Origin: an uncultured virus (IMG/VR IMGVR_UViG_3300022548_000001)
Taxonomy: Duplodnaviria > Heunggongvirae > Uroviricota > Caudoviricetes
Reading direction: 5' to 3' (one strand)
Virus record (IMG/VR): IMGVR_UViG_3300022548_000001
DNA: 64,000 bases
This document shows positions 5,895 through 51,373 of the stretch, one piece after another. Under the pieces are notes generated by a model. The model searched no databases. It saw nothing but the letters and a program-made list of their open reading frames with translations, and was not told where the DNA came from. The position numbers and the translations under genes are program-made. Each line of letters begins with the position of its first letter. Within the stretch, counting starts at the first letter, position 1.

Positions 5895-8578
5895 TGGCCA
5901 AAAAACAAGCGTATAATTATGAATTTAAGATGTTGCTTGAAGGGATCGCCATTCCTTTTAAGAGCGCTGAAATTGTTTGTACGCCGAACGGTGTTGAATT
6001 TAACGTTAACGTGCCCGTATGCGCGGAGTTATTTGATTTGAAGCCAAAAACAATGGTTCAAATTTTTTTCCGTGAATGGTACGCAAACAACGAAAAATGG
6101 AAAGATAATTCGACTCCGGCATGGCGATTAATGGCCGACGGATTTTTAAGCGCGTTTGTTGTTGGAGAAGATTCGACCGGCGGACGCTCAGTAGCTTTAA
6201 TATGCAGAGATTTCAGAATGGATATTCGAAAATCTCCGGCAGCTCTTGCATACGTTGATCAGGAAGAGATGGTTGGAGAGGTTAGAACTCAATATAGTAT
6301 TCACGGATTAATGCAGCAGATTGTGATTCCAGGTCTTGATGAAAATAAACCCGCGACCCCTGATACAAGAATTTACTCAAATGATCGTTTAATGGATCTT
6401 GGGGCTATGATAGCGCGGATTGCCGGAACATCATACGGTAATATAACGGAAAACGCGGCAAATGGCGGGAATCTTTTAGATAATTGGAAACTTTCCACAA
6501 ACGAAAAGACTGAAGCGGAAATGCAGGCCGAGAGAAGATCGGCTCACCCAAAAAATCCTCAAAAGAAATATGCAAATGGAGGATTGTTTCTTGATGCATT
6601 TATACGAGGATTATGGATGGAAGCTGTTGGCGGGACTACGGCGAATTCCTTTCTCAATAAAAGGTTAAGGGTTGATAAGCGAGTCCTGGTTCCTAGAAAT
6701 TATGCTGGATTTAATTTTTTTCAAAGAAATAATTTTGGCCTTGAGGTTGGAACCGTCGTTATGGGCAACGCCAGATTTTCCAGCCTTGAGGCGGCTATGA
6801 TGAATGTCGCTGGATTATTCTCTGTTCGGGTATATTCATGCAGCACTCCGTCTTTAATATCTCTTCAAAAAAATTCTCCAGGGCTTGAATATGTTCTTGA
6901 TGAAAAAGTGCGTGAATTTATGGTTGAAAAACACGCGGAAGAATTTGGCCAGCCGTTCATGCTGAATGAAACAATGCTTCTTCCCCCATTAGAATTTACT
7001 GCACCGCCGAATTGCAATTTATTTTTCCCCCCTATGTATGATAGGGTAAGCTGGCAATATGATATGGACAGCGATATTACGCGGGGCTATTTTCATTTAA
7101 TAAGTTCGTTGAACGTTCCGGGCGGCAGTGATTTTGGAGAAATTAATTTTCAAATTCCAAACGGCTTATTTAATATGTCCGCGGAAAAAAAGAATAAAAA
7201 ACCACCGTTAACACTTGAAGAAAGATATAAAGGGGTAAGTGTTTATCACGGCTCTGTCGAATATAATTTGGCCGCAGGAGACGTCGTAAGGAATTTTGGG
7301 CTCACTATAACCAATGATAAAGGAAAATTAGTGTTTGCTGATGCGGCGTCAAAAGCTAAAAAAAATGAAAAAGAAGCGCAATCTTCTTCCCCACCTGTCG
7401 GTGGAGGGGAGGACGTGCAATCTGACGCACAATCCGCAATTAATAAAGCAAAAGAAAAGGCCGCCGCTCAATTATCGAAAAAGAAACTGGAATCATTTGA
7501 AAACAATGTAGCGAATGCTTACAAACGCCACGCTGCTATAAAGTACCTTAATACAAAATTTGCCGGCAGAGTTGTTACCGTTGATATGGCGTTTAACCCG
7601 TTTGTTATGTGTGGATTTCCGGGTGCGATTATCAGCGCAAAGAATGAAATTGGAACGAATGTGACAAAAACCATTCTTGGAATGGTTCAGCAAGTGAGTC
7701 ATACTATTTATATAACTGGAGAATCGGCTGAAGCGGCCACAACCGTTATAATGAATAACGCTCGATTTTATGACGAGCCGACCGATCTTGATATGAATGG
7801 AATGCCGTTGTATATGAAAGCGACGAATCCGAAAGACGCCGATTTCTCATTATCAAATTATGAATTTACTAATCCTAACGGAGTTCCCTATTCGGTTCCA
7901 AATGCTCAGCCGGCCGCTCAAGTTATGCCGCAGGAAAATGAATATTTTGATTTGGGAGAAGAAGTGTCTAATCAAAAAGGATATGTATATGTAAAAGATT
8001 TTCTTACTTCAAGCGCCGAGGACGTTGGAAGAGGAAGAGACGAAAATATTTATGTCGATCGATCATATGAACCAAATAGAATCGCTAAATTTTATGATAA
8101 AGTATTTGGTCATAAAACCCCCCATTTTATGATAGGAAATTATATAAAAGAAGACGGTAAACCTGGAAATTTTGTTTATGACACAATGCATGAGGCTTTA
8201 TTAAATCTTGAAAAAAACAATCAATTAATGACTGATTATGAATACTGTATACAATTTGTACGAAGAAATATTTGTTCGGCGAACGCGTTTTATCATGCAA
8301 TACTTGGGCTTTCAAGCGGAGAAATTTCAAAACAATCAGGAATTCAATATGTTAATTATCCCGCAGGGCAATATGACGATGAAGAGCCGATAAAATATTA
8401 TGGCGTTCCAACGGAAAAAATTTCTTCAATACCCAAAAATATTGGATTAAGAGCCGGCGGATTTAGCAGTATACGAGAGTCGTCGCCGGTTACAGCCATC
8501 ATTAAAGAAAGGCGCGACGCTGTTGAAGCGTACTATCGTGCGTTGAAAAATAATGTTACAGGGGTGAAAGATGGATAA
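5894..8578 (+). CDS. Baseplate hub-like protein (putative)
   Basis: 894 aa. LICRD and V.MAFNPF...GFPG...GMVQQVSHTI segments resemble gp27/gpD-type hubs; gene order agrees. Confidence 0.45.
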   Translation: MAKKQAYNYEFKMLLEGIAIPFKSAEIVCTPNGVEFNVNVPVCAELFDLKPKTMVQIFFREWYANNEKWKDNSTPAWRLMADGFLSAFVVGEDSTGGRSVALICRDFRMDIRKSPAALAYVDQEEMVGEVRTQYSIHGLMQQIVIPGLDENKPATPDTRIYSNDRLMDLGAMIARIAGTSYGNITENAANGGNLLDNWKLSTNEKTEAEMQAERRSAHPKNPQKKYANGGLFLDAFIRGLWMEAVGGTTANSFLNKRLRVDKRVLVPRNYAGFNFFQRNNFGLEVGTVVMGNARFSSLEAAMMNVAGLFSVRVYSCSTPSLISLQKNSPGLEYVLDEKVREFMVEKHAEEFGQPFMLNETMLLPPLEFTAPPNCNLFFPPMYDRVSWQYDMDSDITRGYFHLISSLNVPGGSDFGEINFQIPNGLFNMSAEKKNKKPPLTLEERYKGVSVYHGSVEYNLAAGDVVRNFGLTITNDKGKLVFADAASKAKKNEKEAQSSSPPVGGGEDVQSDAQSAINKAKEKAAAQLSKKKLESFENNVANAYKRHAAIKYLNTKFAGRVVTVDMAFNPFVMCGFPGAIISAKNEIGTNVTKTILGMVQQVSHTIYITGESAEAATTVIMNNARFYDEPTDLDMNGMPLYMKATNPKDADFSLSNYEFTNPNGVPYSVPNAQPAAQVMPQENEYFDLGEEVSNQKGYVYVKDFLTSSAEDVGRGRDENIYVDRSYEPNRIAKFYDKVFGHKTPHFMIGNYIKEDGKPGNFVYDTMHEALLNLEKNNQLMTDYEYCIQFVRRNICSANAFYHAILGLSSGEISKQSGIQYVNYPAGQYDDEEPIKYYGVPTEKISSIPKNIGLRAGGFSSIRESSPVTAIIKERRDAVEAYYRALKNNVTGVKDG

Positions 8579-9263
8579 TGAATCGCAAAAAATACTTGAA
8601 TGGCAAAAAAGTAAAAATCCGGTTATTTTTACGGAATTGATGTCTAAATATCAGCCCATTGTCAATTCCGTCGTAAATAAATATAGGACGGTAGGAATTT
8701 CTCCGCCAGTTTTAAAATGTGAAGCCTCCGCTCAACTTGTCAAGGCGTTTAATACGTATAATCCAAAAATGGGTGCCGCACCGTCAACGTATATATGGAA
8801 TCAAATGCAAAAAGTTCAACGAGTCGCCACCGAAAGCCTTTCTTCAGGACATATACCGGAATATAGAAATTTAAAGAAATCCACTTTTTTAACCGTAAAA
8901 ACTAATCTTGAGAATCGTCTTGGATATGAACCGAGCGTGGACGATTTGGCGGATGAATTAAAATGGGATAGATCAGAAGTGGCGAGAATGAACGCTGAAC
9001 TTGGCGGCGAGGTTACCGCTTCTCAGGCTGAATTTGATTTCTATGGAAATGATATACAAAATAAAAGTAAAGATTACGCCCTTGCTGAATATTTATATCA
9101 TGAACTTAAAGGAAAAGAAAAAACGGTAATGGAGCATGTGTTTGGGTTTGGAGGAAAACCTATTTTAAATAATAAAGAAATAGCTAAAAAATTAAATACA
9201 AACGAAATGGCCGTAGTGAGAATGAGAAAGAAATTGGCCGAAAAAATAAAGGAATATCGATAA
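8571..9263 (+). CDS. Phage sigma-70 family factor (FliA/SigB-like architecture)
   Basis: Region 2 (LVKAFNTYNP..G...STY), region 3 (LGYEPSVDDLADEL) and region 4 HTH (NKEIAKKLNTNEMAVVRMRKK). Confidence 0.85.
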   Translation: MDNESQKILEWQKSKNPVIFTELMSKYQPIVNSVVNKYRTVGISPPVLKCEASAQLVKAFNTYNPKMGAAPSTYIWNQMQKVQRVATESLSSGHIPEYRNLKKSTFLTVKTNLENRLGYEPSVDDLADELKWDRSEVARMNAELGGEVTASQAEFDFYGNDIQNKSKDYALAEYLYHELKGKEKTVMEHVFGFGGKPILNNKEIAKKLNTNEMAVVRMRKKLAEKIKEYR

Positions 9264-42971: not shown

Positions 42972-43047
42972 ACGACTTTGGCTGGCCAGGCCGGCAGCAT
43001 GGCTCCAGCGGGTGGTTCGCTACGCCACCCCTCTCCGCCGGATACCG

Positions 43048-43389
43048 TCACTCCACCACGGTATACTCGGAGAATTCAAAGGTAGCTTTCGCTACCTCCT
43101 CATCCGAGTATTCGTGGCGATCGGTGAGCCGCGGCAGGCCGCGGACACCGATCACGATGACGGAGTCGCCCCGACCGAGCTTTACTCTCGGCGGGGTCTC
43201 CGGCACCGGCACACTGATTCCATAACGCGATTTTATCGCGTTAATGGTTGCAGTGTGTGACGGATTGCAGCATGAGCTGCAATCCCCGGCGGATATTCGC
43301 CTCACGTCTTCGACGTTGAGGGTTTTGCGTCTTATGACGCAATCCCCATCAAACATCGAATCCGCTATCGCGAATCCGATGAACTTCAT
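43048..43389 (-). CDS. DUF1874/STIV B116-like protein (AcrIII-1 ring nuclease family, putative)
   Basis: 113 aa from ATG 43389; SHTATI..I...G, RVKL..GD.VIV, RL...EE and terminal F motifs follow the family pattern as I recall it. Confidence 0.6.
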   Translation of the reverse strand: MKFIGFAIADSMFDGDCVIRRKTLNVEDVRRISAGDCSSCCNPSHTATINAIKSRYGISVPVPETPPRVKLGRGDSVIVIGVRGLPRLTDRHEYSDEEVAKATFEFSEYTVVE

Positions 43390-43392
43390 ACT

Positions 43393-43540
43393 ATATTTAT
43401 TCCATATTTTTTTAATTTCTAACGGATAAAAAAAATCGCATTTTGCTTCATTTATATAGCGCCGGCTTGGCGCTTTTTTGTACACATCTCTGTGTACAAT
43501 ATATTTATTTCATATTTTTTTAATTTCTAACAGATAAAAA
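43393..43540 (-). repeat. 40-bp direct repeat (43393-43432 and 43501-43540), probable promoter duplication
   Basis: 38/40 identical; the core AAAAT(A/C)TG(G/A)AATAAATAT also occurs at 45166-45183. Confidence 0.8.
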
Positions 43541-45272: not shown

Positions 45273-45679
45273 TGGTGGACCTGAGGGGAATCGAACCCCT
45301 GTCCTGAAATAAGAAATTCAAAAACGATATCACATGCTTTTATCGGGCTCACAGTAGAACGCCAGTATGTAGCCCGCCCCCTTTTCTGGCGCTTGGATAA
45401 TTTATTTAAGGCGCTCTAGTATCCACCTAATAACGCCCGATCCGAATGAATAAGGAAACGCCACCATCGGAGTCATGACATTTCCTTTGCGGCTTTTATT
45501 AAGCCGCGTTGAAAACCGGCTGCAGATTCGTCAATGCAGCGAACTGCATTGCAAAACGAGCGCCGATTTCAGCGCCTTTTTTATTGGCACTTATTATTTG
45601 ATCGATTTTTAACGAGGCCATCGATCAACCTCGGCATGCGTTTTCAAACCCCTCATATCAGTCGAAACCTGTCAGGCCC
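45273..45679 (-). ncRNA. ssrA: tmRNA
   Basis: 5' GGGCCTGACAGGTTTCGAC and 3' AGGGGTTCGATTCCCCTCAGGTCCACCA, with a G3:U alanine identity pair. Tag ORF 45588-45499 follows AATAAGT and ends NAA-TAA-TAA within a hairpin. Confidence 0.95.
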
Positions 45680-45920: not shown

Positions 45921-46043
45921 AATTGTTCCTTTTCAAAAATTATGCCGTCTAATAGATAAAATTTGATTCCCCCCAACGGGGGGAAAATTTTTTATCCAAA
46001 TTTTATAAATGTATTTTCTTATAACGGACGGCCGCGCCAATTG

Positions 46044-46167: not shown

Positions 46168-46635
46168 TTAATTGCCTTTTATCTTCATGGCGCAAATCAC
46201 GCGAACAGTCCCACCCTCGCTGGATGGCGGAGGGATAATATCAGTCGACTGCTTCGTTACGCCATTAATTTGATATTGAAACGTCTCTTTCCCGTCTGGG
46301 CCGATAAATCGTCCGCGGTTAATAGAATTCATCATATCAAAGCATTGAGCTATTGTCGTCCCCTCTTCTACGGAGACGCTAATTACTTCGCCCTGTCCAA
46401 GGCGAATAAACTCTACAACATAAGGAATATTCCCTTTGACCTTGTTTCCAATAAAAACCCTGTCCCCGTCATTCAGGCGGGTATCAGGGCTAATTGCGTT
46501 GCTTGCGTTAATTGTTATTGTATTTGGCACAAATACTTCTCCCGCCTGATTAAGGAGGTTCTGAAGGGTCGGATTGTCGCTAATATCAAACGAACGAACC
46601 TCTGACCCAACCTTGATCAATTGAACGATAACCAT
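46168..46635 (-). CDS. Tandem (di-) ubiquitin-like beta-grasp protein
   Basis: Two homologous units (V.LI..G.....TL..LL..AG...ING...L.DGD.V) ending NKVKGN and MKIKGN; next to E1 and JAB genes. Confidence 0.8.
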   Translation of the reverse strand: MVIVQLIKVGSEVRSFDISDNPTLQNLLNQAGEVFVPNTITINASNAISPDTRLNDGDRVFIGNKVKGNIPYVVEFIRLGQGEVISVSVEEGTTIAQCFDMMNSINRGRFIGPDGKETFQYQINGVTKQSTDIIPPPSSEGGTVRVICAMKIKGN

Positions 46636-46660: not shown

Positions 46661-47419
46661 TTAAAAAATAATTGGTTCACAGTTTGTTCCGAATTGTCGC
46701 AACATCATTGCCTCGGGGTATAATGTGAAATGAACTTCATTCCACATTTTCATTGGCCCGTCATTTCTTAATGTATCAGAGCCATAATGACAATTAAAAT
46801 GCTGAACAATACGGCCAACTGCCATTGACGCAATAAAAGTTACAGTGGAAATGATAGAGGCACTCGCGCCGCATCGAGACGTTTGCGCCTCTTCATCCTT
46901 ATACAAAGTTTTTTTCCATTCTTGCACATGAACGTAGTCGTTTGGATTGAACGCATAGATCCGACCATCTCTGAGTCCCATCCGGGTTTCTATTACAAGA
47001 TCTGTTGAAAAACTGTATTGCAGACAGTTCTCAAAGATTTCTTTTCTACTAGCCATCGTATCCGTGAGCAGAAAGATATATGTAGCTGCCACGTCGCTTC
47101 TTTGATTAGTCACCAGTTCGTTTCTGGCTTCTATTTCAAAGCCAAATTTTCTGATGATCATCTTTTTTAAGGCTTCGACTTTTGGCATGCCAACATGTTC
47201 TGGCTCATAAATTTGATTGGCTAGATTGTGAGATTCAACAATATCATTGTCGAATACTTTGAGAGTTCCACAGTCTTGTTTTGAATTGCCCCACCCCAAT
47301 TGAGCAAGATACCAAGCGACATGAGAGCCTGTCGCCCCAGCCCCAATCACAGTAACAGATTTTTTTCCGATCTGTCTCGGGTCAAGCAGATCGAGTTGCC
47401 TTAAATAGTCTATAGCCAT
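46661..47419 (-). CDS. ThiF/E1-like adenylating enzyme
   Basis: VTVIGAGATGS, FDNDIVESHNLANQ, G.PKVEAL, TD.M.SR; candidate catalytic Cys in TSRCGAS; no CxxC pairs. Confidence 0.9.
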   Translation of the reverse strand: MAIDYLRQLDLLDPRQIGKKSVTVIGAGATGSHVAWYLAQLGWGNSKQDCGTLKVFDNDIVESHNLANQIYEPEHVGMPKVEALKKMIIRKFGFEIEARNELVTNQRSDVAATYIFLLTDTMASRKEIFENCLQYSFSTDLVIETRMGLRDGRIYAFNPNDYVHVQEWKKTLYKDEEAQTSRCGASASIISTVTFIASMAVGRIVQHFNCHYGSDTLRNDGPMKMWNEVHFTLYPEAMMLRQFGTNCEPIIF

Positions 47420-47434
47420 TTAATCCTCCTCTGG

Positions 47435-48337
47435 TCAGGCGTTTAATATTTCTGACTTTGTCGATAAAGGCTGGATTTGGTTAATATTTTTTTTTTTATT
47501 TTTTTTTCTTATGCATTCATCATCATCGTCGTCGTCATCATCATCAAATAATCCATTATATATATCATATTTTGGGTGATTAAATATATTGTATTGAAAT
47601 TCTGGGCAATATTGAGAAAAATTTCTTATACCACCTTGAGATGATTCTTTTACATTGGATTGTGGGAGCTGTTTTTCTTTTAATTTTAAAACTTTCTTTT
47701 CAATTTCTTTATATTCATCGTCTTTTAAATTGATTAGAGGAGAAGCGGCATCTTTTATTAACAATACCTTTTCTCTTTTTGAGATTGATTCTGTGTTCAT
47801 TATAGAAGCAATATTTGATAAAATTGAATTATAATCAAGCGCAATAGACCACTTGATATTGTCAAATTTTATTTGACGTTGATAATCAAAAAACGACACC
47901 GACATTTCATTTTCTTTATTTGCAATCGCCCGAATAAAGTACGAGCCACATTTATTCATTTTTTCAATAGCTTGAACATTATCCTGATTAGATGGCATCG
48001 TACTCATTGTATGATGAGAATGCCCCCAAAACCTAACTTTTGAAATATCTTGAGCACGATTCTCATTAATAAGTTGTTGAGCGATTTCAATTTCCCCTTC
48101 CGGAGATATTTCACACGTTGAGGATGACACTAAGCAGTGTTTTGGATAGAAAATTTCCGTAATGACATACGCATTGTCAATTTCATTTACTATTCCAAGA
48201 AATCCTATTTCTTCGTGATGACAATTAACCATCGCCAATATCCATTTTAAAGCCGTTGGGGTAAATTCTATTGATGGAGGCGTCTCCTTTTTAGTTGTAA
48301 TAAAACTATATTCACATTTTCTTTGATCTGGTTTCAT
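47435..48337 (-). CDS. JAB/MPN+ metallopeptidase (DUB-like)
   Basis: EIGFLG glutamate and WGHSHHTMSTMPSNQD (HxH-x7-S-x2-D) motif. Confidence 0.9.
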   Translation of the reverse strand: MKPDQRKCEYSFITTKKETPPSIEFTPTALKWILAMVNCHHEEIGFLGIVNEIDNAYVITEIFYPKHCLVSSSTCEISPEGEIEIAQQLINENRAQDISKVRFWGHSHHTMSTMPSNQDNVQAIEKMNKCGSYFIRAIANKENEMSVSFFDYQRQIKFDNIKWSIALDYNSILSNIASIMNTESISKREKVLLIKDAASPLINLKDDEYKEIEKKVLKLKEKQLPQSNVKESSQGGIRNFSQYCPEFQYNIFNHPKYDIYNGLFDDDDDDDDDECIRKKNKKKNINQIQPLSTKSEILNA

Positions 48338-49395
48338 ACTTCCTCAACTTTCTTTTCAATATAATTATCAGCTTTAGGAAATAAACAAATTTTTTCTCCC
48401 CACCGATCCTCTTCATTTGGGTGCTTAATGAATCGGATTAATGTATCAAACAAAAGCGATAAGTTTTTTGAGGTAATAGCCTCAAAAACATGATCAATAT
48501 ATTCACCAAGACAAATATTAAATTCATTATTTGAAATAAATGCGTGACCGCATACCCAATTTTCCGGAGCTCTATCAAGATTTCTTATGGTAAGCATTTT
48601 AATAAAATTATTATCAGGAGGCATGATATTATACAAATATTTAAGATCAATAATTATTTGAAGCCTCCCGACAATTCTTCTTCCATATTTTGGCTGATCT
48701 TCAGTTATTATTTCTTTTGTCTGTATTGCAAGTTTTTCCGGTTCATTTTTAACGAACCCAATTGAGTCGACAATTGGGCATTTCTTTTCAAGATATTCAA
48801 TATCTTCAAATATTTTTTTCACAATTTCTTGTTTATCAATGACTTTCATCAAATCATTGATTTGACGTTTTAATGTGACTATTGTCCCGTATATCCTATG
48901 AAGTTCTCGAATTTTTGAGTTATAGAGTGAAAAGGCTGAAGCTTCATCGTGTTTGACAAAGTTTGCCGCAATTGAAATGATATGATCTTTTGTAACAGCC
49001 GTGGTTGGATAAGCGCTCATGGGATTATTAGATATACAATCATCATTATCAACCTCGCCATCAATTTCATCCTCTATGTCGTAATCAGCCTCATTATCGT
49101 TCTCATCATCAAAATTTTCATTTTCATTATAATCATTAGACGGCGCTTCTATATGTTGAACGGTCTGGCCTGGTTGATATTTGGTGACATAAATAATTTG
49201 ACCGTCAACATTGAATTGAAAATTATTTGATTGGAGAAAATTAATTACGTCATTTATTGGTTTATGTGTATAAATAATAAAGTAAGAAGAGGCATAATAA
49301 TAATCATCCGCTATAGAAAATATTACATGCGGAGCATTGTAAATAGTTATTCCACTTTCTTGTGTAAAAACAATTGAAACCATTTTATCCTCCAA
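48334..49395 (-). CDS. Acidic linker, coiled coil and C-terminal E2 (UBC-fold)-like domain
   Basis: G.LQI.I...IRN...GHAF....NICLG...L...L..F...N.ED.WG...FP, paralogous to the upstream gene. Confidence 0.6.
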   Translation of the reverse strand: MEDKMVSIVFTQESGITIYNAPHVIFSIADDYYYASSYFIIYTHKPINDVINFLQSNNFQFNVDGQIIYVTKYQPGQTVQHIEAPSNDYNENENFDDENDNEADYDIEDEIDGEVDNDDCISNNPMSAYPTTAVTKDHIISIAANFVKHDEASAFSLYNSKIRELHRIYGTIVTLKRQINDLMKVIDKQEIVKKIFEDIEYLEKKCPIVDSIGFVKNEPEKLAIQTKEIITEDQPKYGRRIVGRLQIIIDLKYLYNIMPPDNNFIKMLTIRNLDRAPENWVCGHAFISNNEFNICLGEYIDHVFEAITSKNLSLLFDTLIRFIKHPNEEDRWGEKICLFPKADNYIEKKVEEV

Positions 49396-51232
49396 TATGA
49401 ATCGGTATATCTAATTTATTGTCAAATTTTTCTTCTTCTTCTGTTTTTTCCTTGCATATTGTTGCACATTCGTCAATAACATTGTCATTTTTTGCCTTTT
49501 CTTCGCTTACCACGGGCCATCTATTTAAATATGCGCCCGCCGGATCATCGAGATTTACATTTTCAAGAAATAATATAATCATGGTTATTATTTGAAAAAA
49601 ATCTCTTCTTTTATAAGCATCAATCATCATGCCGATCATATTGCCATGGCATATATGTCCATCATCGAAAACATGCGGGGCCTGCATGAGCTCATTAAAG
49701 GCATGAATTTGATGTTTTGTATTATATATCCTAATAGTATTATTAGAGTCATATCTGTCGTTAAACATACCAATGACAATATGGAATGTTCCAATATCAT
49801 GCCATGTTCCATACGTCTCATGTTTAACGTAGATATTCTTTGTATATACATGAATATGTTTGTCTATTATTTTTACGGCGAGAACTTTTGGTATTTTTTG
49901 TAATTCATCAAAGATTTTCTCGCATTTTTCGCGCTCTTCTTGTTCCGCCCTTTTCTCGTCAAAAGAGACGATCATTTCTTCAACTCTTTGAGCCATTCTT
50001 CCATATTCTAGAGCGTTATTCAACGCTTCCGTATATTTTTCTTTTATTTCTGCATATTCTTTTTTTAGTAAATTAATAAGAGATTTCGAACTCGACACTC
50101 CAGCCTCTACAAAAAGATTCTTGTCATTTTTTGTCGTGTCTTGGAAATATTTAACATCTCTTTTGACCATTTCTTCATATGAGAGGCTTCCCATAAACCT
50201 ATCGGCCAATTCTTTTATAATAACTTCTAAAAATTCTCCTTGCAATTGATCCATCTTGTCAATCATAAAATATATGTTATTTTTACTCTGAAGCGCCCAT
50301 ATTATTCCTGTTTTAAAATCACGATATATATAATCAAATTCTGAAAAAGCCGCCCCCATTGGATGAGCATGTTTATTAAAAGAGGAGTTTTCATAGTGCA
50401 GCTGTCTTAGCCCTCTAAAATTAAAACCGAATAACGTATGGAACATTTCAGGCCCCTGCACAAATCTTGACAAAGCAGGGTATACAAAAAGAATAATTGT
50501 TTGATTATCAATTTTAAATTTTTCTAATTTTTCTTTAATTGCATTTACGGAATTATAAAGTCCTTTATTAATACAAATAATATTTTTCTTTATTTTTAAC
50601 GCGAGATATTTTAATAAATTTTCCTCGAACACGATGCAATTGCTCTGAAAAAAATATTCTCCAGCCTTATCTATAGCAATACCAAATTCCGTTAATTCGT
50701 CTTTAATTTGTTTATATGTTGAACATTCTTCAGCCAAAACATGTTGAGTTTCAACTTCAATAGGCTGACTTTCAACTTCAACAGGCTGGGTTTCAGATTC
50801 AACGGTGGACCGAGCCTCAATCTCAACAGATTGCGTTTCCGAGGCTTCCCCCAATAAAGCATTTTTGAATTGATGAATAAAATTTTGTTGATTAAATTCT
50901 GGGTACGGAAACCTTTCCTCTCTCATTATTAAATATTTTGGAGATTCTTTTACCGATCCCGGCGTTATACAATCAAATAAAAGTTTATTTATCCAAAATG
51001 GATGAAGAAGCGTTTGCGTACCAGAAATAGACGTCGGCACCACTTCTACACAATCATATCCATGAGCCGCCGCAATCGATTCAATCGATCTTTTTACTTT
51101 TTCAAATGTTTCTATATCAACTATAGCAAGCTCTCCATCGCTTATAGTTGATAATGAATATGTGTCATAATCTTTTATTACCCCGGTCTCGACAAGTATA
51201 TTAGCTAAAAATTTTTCTATAAACGCGTGCAT
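49385..51232 (-). CDS. Large coiled-coil protein with C-terminal E2 (UBC-fold)-like domain
   Basis: IGTFHIVI...IYN...APHVFDDGHICHGN...FL..VN.DD.AG...WP; ATG 51232 follows AAAGGAGGAGGT. Confidence 0.7.
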   Translation of the reverse strand: MHAFIEKFLANILVETGVIKDYDTYSLSTISDGELAIVDIETFEKVKRSIESIAAAHGYDCVEVVPTSISGTQTLLHPFWINKLLFDCITPGSVKESPKYLIMREERFPYPEFNQQNFIHQFKNALLGEASETQSVEIEARSTVESETQPVEVESQPIEVETQHVLAEECSTYKQIKDELTEFGIAIDKAGEYFFQSNCIVFEENLLKYLALKIKKNIICINKGLYNSVNAIKEKLEKFKIDNQTIILFVYPALSRFVQGPEMFHTLFGFNFRGLRQLHYENSSFNKHAHPMGAAFSEFDYIYRDFKTGIIWALQSKNNIYFMIDKMDQLQGEFLEVIIKELADRFMGSLSYEEMVKRDVKYFQDTTKNDKNLFVEAGVSSSKSLINLLKKEYAEIKEKYTEALNNALEYGRMAQRVEEMIVSFDEKRAEQEEREKCEKIFDELQKIPKVLAVKIIDKHIHVYTKNIYVKHETYGTWHDIGTFHIVIGMFNDRYDSNNTIRIYNTKHQIHAFNELMQAPHVFDDGHICHGNMIGMMIDAYKRRDFFQIITMIILFLENVNLDDPAGAYLNRWPVVSEEKAKNDNVIDECATICKEKTEEEEKFDNKLDIPIHIGG

Positions 51233-51373
51233 ACCTCCTCCTTTCATTCTCATTTAAGAGGTAATTGTCTCTATAATTATAATTACATAAAGAAAAAAGA
51301 AATAACACTTGAGCGCGCTTATGCGGTGTTAAAATCAATATCGGCGCGTATTTAAAGAGTGGGTGAATTTTGC

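Follow-up and report, generated by a model that had tools for sequence, protein, structure and literature searches.

Does a phage gene that encodes two ubiquitin-like (Ubl) domains head to tail specify two modifiers or one? Bacterial ubiquitin-like conjugation (Bil, Bub and the CBASS proteins Cap2 and Cap3) is so far known as host defence against phages, and the question arises here from a 64,000-nucleotide stretch of viral DNA, which we call the window. A first-pass annotation of the bare sequence had placed a polyubiquitin-like precursor at positions 46168..46635, both halves of which would end in K-x-K-G-N and be released by a neighbouring JAB peptidase. These coordinates are correct; the gene lies on the minus strand, and the plus-strand frame is broken by a stop codon. 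The tails also read as described, GNKVKGN forming residues 63-69 and AMKIKGN residues 149-155 directly before TAA, and each half of the translation closes with a single Gly followed by Asn and has no Gly-Gly terminus. Judged by sequence, the tail is one in which Gly is present but has a conserved Asn after it. Six-frame translation of the window gives 219 open segments of 60 residues or more (33,678 residues in all), and K.KGN occurs in them twice, both times in this di-Ubl; composition-preserving shuffles of the protein contained two K.KGN in 2 of 200,000 cases and a C-terminal KGN in 77 of 200,000. The gene most likely encodes a heterotypic polyubiquitin-like precursor; it closes a conjugation-type operon carried by the phage (Table 1).

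Table 1. Features of the di-Ubl operon in the window.
Feature	Coordinates	Strand	Description and basis
G+C-rich hairpin with T runs on both strands	45966..45988	.	Consensus scan only; lies some 180 nt beyond the Ubl stop
Di-Ubl precursor gene	46168..46635	-	155 aa plus stop codon; ORF and translation
Terminal K153-G154-N155, proposed second processing/activation site	46171..46179	-	Abuts the stop; homologue conservation
Ubl domain 2 (residues 70-155)	46171..46428	-	Larger β-grasp, ends KIKGN; AlphaFold2 elements in residues 72-150
Internal K67-G68-N69, proposed first processing site	46429..46437	-	Homologue conservation; pLDDT <50 at residues 65-69
Ubl domain 1 (residues 1-69)	46429..46635	-	SAMP2/ThiS-like β-grasp, ends KVKGN; AlphaFold2 strands and helix in residues 3-62
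E1-like adenylating enzyme	46661..47419	-	252 aa, single ThiF domain; Pfam ThiF E 3e-22, residues 15-243
JAB/JAMM metallopeptidase	47435..48337	-	300 aa; E...HxH...S..D motif; acidic and basic low-complexity C-terminal tail
Short E2-like protein	48334..49395	-	353 aa; AlphaFold2 model and Foldseek; collection entry begins at Met5 (349 aa)
Long E2-like protein	49385..51253	-	622 aa; C-terminal E2-like domain; BLASTP to the 353-aa paralog E 0.003

The AlphaFold2 model of the di-Ubl consists of two β-grasp units and a linker (residues 65-69), with a mean pLDDT of 83.5 for the best model and 46-63 for the other four. Disorder is predicted for the KVKGN linker, and the pTM of 0.52 indicates no fixed interdomain packing. 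Linear di-ubiquitin, ISG15 and FAT10 are the best Foldseek matches in the PDB (E 1e-7 to 1e-5). The two domains share 27% identity in a global alignment and find each other by BLASTP with an E value of 0.019. The profile of the di-Ubl family matches SAMP2 chains (E 4e-4 to 2e-3), placing KGN on KGG, as well as MoaD and ThiS chains. No family in Pfam, PHROG, PADLOC or NCBIfam accommodates the di-Ubl, and a tblastn search of 50,697 GenBank phage records returned no match. A related protein is named 'sulfur carrier protein ThiS' in one source, and the ESM Atlas gave leads below 0.9 alone, viral clusters of 72-79 residues, some with SAMP2/ThiS.

The operon comprises five separate genes in the order long E2-like, short E2-like, JAB/JAMM peptidase, ThiF-type E1 and di-Ubl; the hairpin in Table 1 is a possible terminator. 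In the E1, the homologues of which measure 228-261 residues, the GxGxxGS motif, D120, R125 and C183 are invariant in seven of seven homologues; its profile matches Uba1, UBA5, MccB, ThiF and MoeB in the PDB and aligns over the full length with ThiF and MoeB only. The adjacent JAB/JAMM peptidase, on which the annotation had relied, matches Pfam Prok-JAB weakly and below the cut-off (E 3e-3), and its catalytic residues E43, H106, H108, S116 and D119 are invariant in nine of nine aligned homologues, which bears out the assignment. The presence of two E2-like paralogs is likewise upheld, by the BLASTP link between them, by structural matches to E2/UBC proteins and by shared invariant columns. When the short protein was compared with the PDB by Foldseek, 50 of the 50 matches listed were E2/UBC proteins, all weak (E between 5e-3 and 3e-2; TM by target near 0.5), for an AlphaFold2 model of pLDDT 69 built from a shallow five-sequence alignment. 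His284 and Cys295 of the short protein are invariant, and a 12-sequence alignment of E2-like domains has invariant H...C.G, D.AG and WP columns that are common to the 622-residue protein; within the (A/H)PH...C.G motif, His and Cys are kept in all 12 sequences, the Cys lying downstream of the conserved His. Neither protein matches Pfam UQ_con or Prok-E2, and on the modelled fold we regard both as putative E2/UBC-type, that is, E2-like. For the C terminus of the 622-residue protein, an ESM Atlas lead below 0.9 is an 'E2 variant' cluster.

The full-length alignment of the E1 to ThiF and MoeB only would also suit a reading without any protein-protein conjugation, in which the tails would act as sulfur carriers like ThiS and MoaD, or would receive on Asn a nucleotide adduct like that made by MccB. 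The ThiS label of one relative points in the same direction, as does the terminal Asn, which is reminiscent of MccA of microcin C. However, the E2-like proteins with their invariant His and Cys, together with the JAB, accompany E1 and Ubl wherever a locus is complete, and the larger neighbouring ORFs scanned with Pfam include no sulfurtransferase and no thiamin or molybdopterin genes. MccA and MccB do share with the phage system an E1-superfamily adenylating enzyme and a substrate with a conserved C-terminal Asn, but MccA is a 7-residue peptide, the substrates of MccB being short peptides and not β-grasp domains, the product is a phosphoramidate-linked nucleotide and the pathway runs without E2 or JAB. 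We consider a function outside protein conjugation highly improbable.

If both tails matter, their motifs should be retained in relatives, as the first-pass annotation had anticipated for the internal one. A profile search recovered 66 relatives of the di-Ubl, and 57 of the 67 sequences (query plus 66 hits) carry two or three units with an exact KGN at their end. Among the 48 two-domain members, with a mean column identity of 32%, K153, N155, N69, G68 and G154 are the top-ranked columns by conservation. The internal KGN is indeed kept: the exact motif is present in 42 of the 48 homologues, K in 44, and G and N in 47 each, while at the terminus K is found in 48, G in 46 and N in 47. Among close loci, the codons of the internal KGN vary synonymously. 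The residues after the last Asn are unconserved; there are none in 9 of the 48 members, one in 23 and at most 18, with 25 in the relative P0043. Immediately after Asn, the terminus has E, K, D or R, and the junction has L, V, I, Q or T. Since unconserved tails extend beyond the last KGN in 39 of the 48, maturation would be needed in most members.

The two tails also change together. The three variable residues before K-G-N give 44 matches between junction and terminus, compared with 23.5 ± 3.8 in shuffles, and none of 20,000 shuffles reaches 44, with the qualification that the sequences share kinship, so that independent co-variation events are fewer than these counts suggest. Departures from the motif are paired: KAN/KAN in P0023, KGS/KGS in P0061 and in the viral contigs L025 and L026, and NWKGN/NWKGN in P0084. 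Because the tails co-vary though the domains are heterologous, one shared reader of both is indicated, and the idea that the internal and terminal sites belong together gains support. In the di-Ubl of the window the two KGN are encoded differently, by AAAGGGAAT and AAAGGCAAT, with different flanks; such differing codons and flanks appear to lend no support to gene conversion as the source of the co-variation.

The number of units in relatives ranges from one to three, with KGN at the end of each, and near-identical tandem copies occur. P0060 has identical units 2 and 3, the pair in P0081 shares 97% identity, and the units of P0025, P0088 and P0078 are 55-75% identical. This architecture agrees with the polyubiquitin-like nature first proposed. 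The alternative is a two-domain modifier in the manner of ISG15 or FAT10 that remains uncut; its C-terminal KGN alone would be matured and activated, and the internal KGN would be a hinge or docking element derived from duplication. Modifiers of two domains that work uncut include ISG15, FAT10 and the Type I Bil Ubls, and the first two are among the top structural matches of the di-Ubl. The domain 1 to domain 2 architecture is stable in 48 diverged members, and this fixed order would also fit a single two-domain modifier. Bub Ubls with three domains reportedly assemble and function as whole units. Yet a relic would not be expected to supply some of the five most conserved columns in a family of 32% mean identity, or to change with the terminal motif, and neither the variable unit number and near-identical copies nor the predicted disorder of the linker and its lack of fixed packing favours an uncut protein. 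Moreover, in L096 and L054, two of the four single-KGN loci, the sole KGN lies inside the protein, with over 100 KGN-free residues after it; using that tail would therefore require cleavage. An uncut modifier thus seems unlikely to us.

The E2/E2/JAB/E1/Ubl cassette is conserved in a clade of large uncultured phages, where it adjoins replication genes and a portal gene, and the order E2-JAB-E1-Ubl is kept in phage contigs as well as in L096 and L054. Two KGN units go with two E2-like genes in five phage lineages and one KGN with one E2-like gene in four bacterial loci, these latter operons belonging to genome bins of the candidate phyla radiation (CPR) and other bacteria. The notion of one modifier per E2 paralog would rest on this one contrast between phage and bacterial loci, which is effectively a single evolutionary comparison.

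Further members were sought at the DNA level. A degenerate pattern returned 20 loci from metagenome contigs, 7 of them true and all close relatives; the other 13 are chance matches inside unrelated proteins. A looser pattern gave at least 121 stretches in genome contigs, and the family HMM (hmmsearch, E ≤ 0.01) matched ORFs in at least 11 loci, with 120 loci examined among the matches listed; at least 7 have a real Ubl, L117 and L138 being identical. Four of the loci (L037, L040/L041 and L094) encode an unrelated repeat protein of about 200 residues from Bacilli genome bins. Scans of viral contigs with the single proteins P0081, P0025, P0072 and P0023 found no relative. Within 5 kb on either side of a related ThiF-like gene, the family HMM detected no KGN Ubl in the cultured phages Xanthomonas PhiXhv-15, crAss001 and Flavobacterium FpV4, which may carry other systems. 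Two candidates for a natural 'mature' form ending in Gly were dropped, P0072 being a frameshifted copy of an L079-type di-Ubl and P0087 stemming from a contig of just 1,030 nt; P0062 proved to be the 158-residue P0100 called in truncated form.

We propose a mechanism in which the two K-G-N motifs, at the junction and at the C terminus, would be equivalent recognition sites. The JAB/JAMM peptidase of the operon would cleave both and yield two different Ubls, the SAMP2-like domain 1 and the larger domain 2; the E1 would then adenylate the C termini exposed by cleavage, and the Ubls would move on to the conserved Cys in the E2-like proteins and be conjugated to targets. The steps that we infer are the cleavage itself, the enzyme behind it, the position of the cut, the charging of E1 and E2 and the attachment to targets. 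Processing of both KGN sites, irrespective of the exact bond, we regard as fairly probable, and the enzyme that cuts at both is probably the JAB of the operon. Cleavage by a JAB both near a C terminus and at an internal Gly, as the annotation had envisaged, has published precedent: BilC cleaves BilA at G97|A98, one residue from the C-terminal end, and BubCD cleaves the BubAB fusion after the conserved internal G229. Because characterised JAB enzymes cut after Gly, G|N is favoured, and by analogy with these maturases it is most likely the position of the cut; Asn would then be a conserved P1' cap, which, as the annotation suggested, might hold the system inactive before processing. The statement in full, namely that the JAB cuts both sites at G|N and that two Ubls are released for E1/E2 conjugation, is put forward tentatively, with somewhat less than even confidence.

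A mere cap is not an account of the strict conservation of Asn; to our knowledge JAB isopeptidases have no requirement for a particular P1' residue, and the SAMP2 alignment would put Asn where the reactive Gly sits. The strict Asn, the tails that vary between 0 and 25 residues and the match to the KGG of SAMP2 would suit about as well a cut after Asn, in which the same precursor would be cleaved at KGN|x, the mature forms would end in K-G-N-COOH and the E1 would activate Asn rather than Gly. The conserved block stops exactly at Asn in 47 of 48 members at both sites, with unconserved sequence beyond it, and the conserved motif of Ubl families normally stops at the mature terminus. The HMM alignment sets K-G-N on the K-G-G end of SAMP2 (IKGG), N69 matches the second Gly of the KVSGG-R end in the P0083 family, and in P0081 cleavage behind Asn would make the two products identical, provided that the initiator Met is removed. 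The window protein and eight other representatives end at Asn and would on a cut at KGN|x need no C-terminal maturation. MccB is an E1-like enzyme working on the C-terminal Asn of MccA. However, the published JAB cleavages considered (BilA and BubAB) all fall after Gly. The phage E1 is not specifically MccB-like: it is without the extra N-terminal region of MccB, homology starting at profile residue 12 compared with residues 106-109 of the MccB chains, and its match to MccB does not surpass those to Uba1, UBA5 or ThiF. An activated C-terminal Asn is also prone to succinimide cyclisation, which would compete with thioester transfer, and Asn is replaceable by Ser in the KGS/KGS lineage. We rate a cut after Asn as rather unlikely. 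Its wider form, drawn by analogy with MccB and MccA, would be a family with Asn as the reactive end, in which the JAB cuts after Asn, the E1 adenylates Ubl-K-G-N-COOH and two modifiers have two dedicated E2-like enzymes; this we hold to be unlikely. Should it apply, transfer might even proceed via, or be gated by, a C-terminal succinimide.

With cleavage of both sites by the operon JAB at G|N as the preferred reading, the phage system can be set beside known ones. Like eukaryotic polyubiquitin, it has head-to-tail β-grasp units with a common terminal motif and no spacer, a last unit that often bears a short unconserved cap, and a variable number of units, some of them recent duplicates. In contrast to polyubiquitin, its units are heterotypic (27% identical), K-G-N replaces R-G-G, and the presumed maturase, on a predicted cleavage, is a JAB metalloprotease of its own operon. 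The SAMP2/UbaA/HvJAMM1 system resembles the phage one in the SAMP2-like domain 1 with IKGG aligned to KGN (E values as above), and in both a JAMM protease accompanies a small E1 of the ThiF/MoeB type with a single domain. We know of no E2 in archaeal sampylation, and SAMP2 is produced with a free GG end, whereas the phage has two conserved E2-like proteins, a G-N end and tandem-fused units.

Bil operons (BilABCD; Chambers et al., Hor et al.) likewise combine Ubl, E2, JAB and E1, with a Ubl often made of two β-grasp domains, and the JAB matures a Ubl with a single Gly plus one residue, as at the BilA site of E. aridi. They differ in that BilD is a tandem IAD-AAD-CYS E1 whereas the phage enzyme is a 252-residue single ThiF domain, that the phage operon has two E2-like paralogs bearing long N-terminal extensions, and that the terminal motif closes its internal Ubl domain as well; the operon is encoded by a phage and not in a defence island. 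The phage Ubl and E2 proteins match nothing in PADLOC, Pfam or NCBIfam, and the JAB matches Prok-JAB below threshold, in libraries that perhaps are without Bil models. The Bub/6E 'polyUbl' systems (Iyer et al. 2006; Ye et al. 2024; Gong et al. 2024) have one to three tandem β-grasp domains per protein and a precursor cleaved by a JAB at a conserved internal Gly. Unlike the phage genes, which are all separate, Bub has Ubl-E2 or E2-E1 and JAB-E1 fusions, a DUF6527 serine protease and oxyester chemistry with Ser and no catalytic E2 Cys; the phage E2-like domains have an invariant Cys, and a Pfam scan of eight window proteins gave no DUF6527 match.

A complete E2/E2/JAB/E1/Ubl cassette, of the kind of system known from host defence, thus sits here in phages instead, with a Ubl and E2 proteins that match no curated family. 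If both KGN sites are cut, the di-Ubl would be, as far as the literature searched shows, the first true polyubiquitin-style precursor from a prokaryote or virus, and a heterotypic one, with a single gene supplying two different tags. An invariant Asn behind a lone Gly poses the question of whether Gly or Asn is the reactive end, and the answer bears on the evolution of E1 and JAB specificity. The targets of the phage system, which might be proteins of host defence, the phage's own virion or proteins of replication, could reveal a new strategy of counter-defence or assembly.

Both halves of the 155-residue di-ubiquitin-like protein (di-Ubl) end in K-x-K-G-N, as the first-pass annotation had read them: domain 1 (residues 1–69) closes with GNKVKGN at residues 63–69, and domain 2 (residues 70–155) with AMKIKGN followed by a TAA stop codon. 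The plus-strand frame across the same coordinates is interrupted by a stop. Among open segments ≥60 residues long in the six frames of the window (33,678 residues), K.KGN occurs twice, both times in di-Ubl, and only 2 of 200,000 composition-preserving shuffles of the protein contained it twice. As predicted by AlphaFold2 from an alignment of 24 close homologues, di-Ubl forms two β-grasp units, with strands and a helix in residues 3–62 and 72–150, linked by residues 65–69, the sole segment with a pLDDT below 50 (best model pLDDT 83.5, the other four 46–63; pTM 0.52). The top PDB matches of the model in Foldseek are linear di-ubiquitin, ISG15 and FAT10 (E 1e-7 to 1e-5). The likeness between the two domains is distant (BLASTP E 0.019; 27% identity in global alignment). 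An antisense ORF over the gene, which lacks homology evidence, is probably spurious.

A word-indexed search returned 23 other proteins, 22 of them of 154–157 residues at 63–74% identity and one a fragment, while a profile search of 1.84 billion representatives yielded 66 proteins at E ≤1e-3, 44 of these at ≤1e-10. With the query counted, 57 of 67 sequences carry two or three exact KGN motifs. Conservation was assessed in the 48 two-domain members; the 19 sequences excluded were 12 three-unit or homotypic proteins, five fragments or single-domain proteins, one with a 25-residue tail and one unrelated 815-residue protein. At 32% mean column identity, the best-conserved columns are K153 (48/48), N155, N69 and G68 (47/48 each) and G154 (46/48). 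The internal KGN, expected to persist in homologues if it is a processing site, is exact in 42 of the 48, and the terminal one in 45. Past the final Asn follow unconserved residues only: none in nine proteins, one in 23, two to five in 15 and 18 in one; P0043, a relative outside the alignment, has 25. At both sites, close loci encode K, G and N by different synonymous codons, and therefore the constraint acts on the protein. Relatives consist of one, two or three units of 67–86 residues, each KGN-ended and directly abutting the next. Identity between units is complete in P0060 (units 2 and 3), 97% in P0081 (its two units) and 55–75% in P0025, P0078 and P0088; thus, duplications keep to the KGN boundary. 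Two short homologues apparently ending at Gly were set aside, one being a frameshift artefact and the other lying on a 1-kb contig. Loci from Bacilli bins (L094 8140–10845 (-), L037 and L040/L041) matched the DNA pattern and, only weakly, the Ubl profile, and look unrelated; they encode 800–950-residue proteins with three ~200-residue repeats, each with DGD..LVEKDAKGN.

The two sites also vary together. In the three variable residues before K-G-N, junction and terminus match 44 times within proteins against an expected 23.5 ± 3.8, a number reached in none of 20,000 shuffles redistributing termini among proteins; because the sequences are related, independent events are fewer than these counts. 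Departures from KGN are paired in P0023 (KAN/KAN), in P0061 and two viral contigs (KGS/KGS) and in P0084 (NWKGN/NWKGN), and unpaired in four proteins (P0040, P0053, P0064 and P0077). In the simplest reading of these sequences, one partner, the peptidase and/or the E1, would read both tails of otherwise heterologous domains.

We propose that di-Ubl is probably a precursor cut at both KGN sites, releasing two different Ubls. The JAB of the operon would be the obvious cutting enzyme; the E1 would then adenylate the released tails, which, once activated, would be handed to cysteines of the E2-like proteins. The first-pass annotation had the JAB cut twice between Gly and Asn, a position that we adopt tentatively, short of even confidence. 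It is favoured because Ala is the sole substitution seen at the KGN Gly. In known bacterial systems, BilC cleaves BilA between G97 and A98, one residue before its end, and the BubAB fusion is cleaved after G229 by the JAB domain of BubCD; that all these published JAB cuts follow Gly, and that E1-like enzymes except MccB are reported to act on a C-terminal Gly, counts for the same bond. A cut after the Asn is less likely, even though this residue is conserved equally with the Gly and followed by variable or absent residues, a degree of conservation that a cap or P1′ role alone would not require. The family profile also places K-G-N on the K-G-G end of the archaeal Ubl SAMP2, N69 matches the second Gly of KVSGG-R, the ending found in a single-domain sister family, and MccB is a published example of an E1-like enzyme able to activate a C-terminal Asn. 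Special Asn chemistry is, however, at odds with a healthy lineage carrying Ser at this position and with an operon E1 that is not specifically MccB-like. That di-Ubl undergoes no internal cut at all is unlikely.

The enzymes of the proposed two-site processing pathway adjoin di-Ubl, whose gene is the last of a tightly packed minus-strand operon (overlaps or gaps of 11, 4, 15 and 25 nt); a hairpin with T runs, a consensus match only, lies ~180 nt past its stop. The neighbouring JAB/JAMM peptidase and the E2 paralogues named earlier both hold up. In the former, E43, H106, H108, S116 and D119 are invariant in nine of nine homologues, with a Pfam Prok-JAB score of only E 3e-3. Its C-terminus (residues ~265–300) has a run of nine Asp and then a Lys-rich stretch, and the C-terminal halves of its homologues vary in length and sequence. 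The two E2-like proteins have a common C-terminal domain (BLASTP E 0.003) with weak E2/UBC matches: all 50 listed Foldseek matches of the shorter protein's model (5-sequence alignment, pLDDT 69) are E2/UBC, at E 5e-3 to 3e-2 and TM by target ~0.5. A 12-sequence alignment of this domain conserves a His, a Cys 5–12 residues later ((A/H)PH...C.G), D.AG and WP. The E1 scores E 3e-22 against Pfam ThiF, and its nucleotide-binding motifs are retained unchanged, together with Cys183, in seven of seven homologues; its likeness to Uba1, UBA6, UBA5, MccB, PaaA, ThiF and MoeB in the PDB is about equal, with full-length alignment only to ThiF and MoeB.

Features of the di-Ubl operon and its surroundings
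Feature	Position	Strand	Size	Basis
Long E2-like protein	49385-51253	-	622 aa	C-terminal domain common with 353-aa protein
Short E2-like protein	48334-49395	-	353 aa	AlphaFold2 model, Foldseek
JAB/JAMM peptidase	47435-48337	-	300 aa	Catalytic motif, weak Pfam match
E1	46661-47419	-	252 aa	Single ThiF domain, Pfam
di-Ubl	46168-46635	-	155 aa	Translation
Antisense ORF	46270-46605	+	111 aa	
tmRNA, full-length	45273-45679	-		Rfam RF00023, 136.5 bits, E 2e-54
G+C island	43000-43499			
ORF in G+C island	43048-43485	-	145 aa	

The five-gene order is conserved in L001/L013 (one contig), L020, L021, L025/L026 and L079 (contig from a Chitinophagales genome bin), and partly in L011 and L012. Gene lengths and scores in L020 are identical to the window's; L025/L026, of the KGS lineage, encode a di-Ubl only ~29% identical beside the same SNF2, HTH, VRR-NUC and portal genes. 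Scanning species-representative genomes with a more permissive pattern gave, among the matches listed, one-unit systems. The order is E2-like, JAB, E1, Ubl in L096 (Saccharibacteria bin) and, after a 493-residue protein, in L054 (Buchananbacteria bin, next to uvrB and uvrA); Ubl, DUF3846, E1, JAB, E2-like in L068 (Dehalococcoidales bin); L064 (Thermoanaerobaculia bin) has E2-like and Ubl. The Ubls end in KGN-stop in L068 and L064 and in KGN-C in L117/L138; in L096 and L054 the sole KGN is internal, and the >100 residues after it contain no second one. The 493-residue protein of L054 (12232–13713 (-)), whose gene lies upstream of that for the E2-like protein, reproduces the N-terminal region of the latter but has no E2 domain; it may be an adaptor or decayed paralogue. 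In L068, the DUF3846 protein (8577–9065 (-); Pfam E 7e-7) separates the KGN Ubl from the E1. An HMM built from the same sequences, and informative for the absence of extra copies, finds two E2-like domains per complete two-KGN locus and one per one-KGN locus. These counts fit the suggested pairing of one E2 with each modifier, but the comparison comes down to one phage clade and four scattered bacterial loci. ThiF-like E1 genes 25–32% identical to the window's occur in the cultured phages crAss001 (L003, gp75-gp78; host Bacteroides), FpV4 (L004; Flavobacterium) and PhiXhv-15 (L002; Xanthomonas), in crAss001 adjoining a gene annotated as metalloprotease. No KGN Ubl was found within 5 kb of these genes, and the three phages may hold a different E1-based system.

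Judged from its genes, the operon would work like a Bil-type Ubl/E2/JAB/E1 pathway with a polyubiquitin-style precursor. Bil is, however, defined by a tandem IAD-AAD-CYS E1, an architecture that the window E1 lacks, and the Bub traits (fusions, a DUF6527 protease, looked for in eight window proteins, and a Cys-less E2) are all absent. Domain 1 resembles SAMP2 by sequence; sampylation is not known to involve an E2. Tandem 'polyUbl' proteins of bacterial 6E operons were reported in 2006 and compared there to polyubiquitin; we found no statement of cleavage between their units. Bub three-domain Ubls are described as assembling whole. In the main text of openly accessible articles, we found no E1/E2/JAB system that is encoded by a phage and has a precursor of this kind.

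The window is phage DNA, as seen from large structural genes, an SNF2 helicase, a VRR-NUC nuclease and a portal sharing 31% identity with its counterparts in Vibrio phage D69 and Salmonella phage Arash. Its G+C content is 36%, with an island of 52% against 29–32% in the two adjacent 500-nt bins; the island covers one minus-strand ORF and overlapping plus-strand ORFs of odd composition, and an Rfam gathering search found no RNA family in it. A tmRNA (ARAGORN tag peptide ANKKGAEIGARFAMQFAALTNLQPVFNAA) lies ~490 nt downstream of the di-Ubl gene on the same strand, placing a phage tmRNA beside a phage protein-tagging operon. The operon itself is located with replication and nuclease genes near the portal gene. 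Since it is kept across phages whose di-Ubls are only ~29% identical, it likely serves a core function and is not recently acquired cargo; its targets, we speculate, could be host defence or proteolysis factors, or phage proteins.
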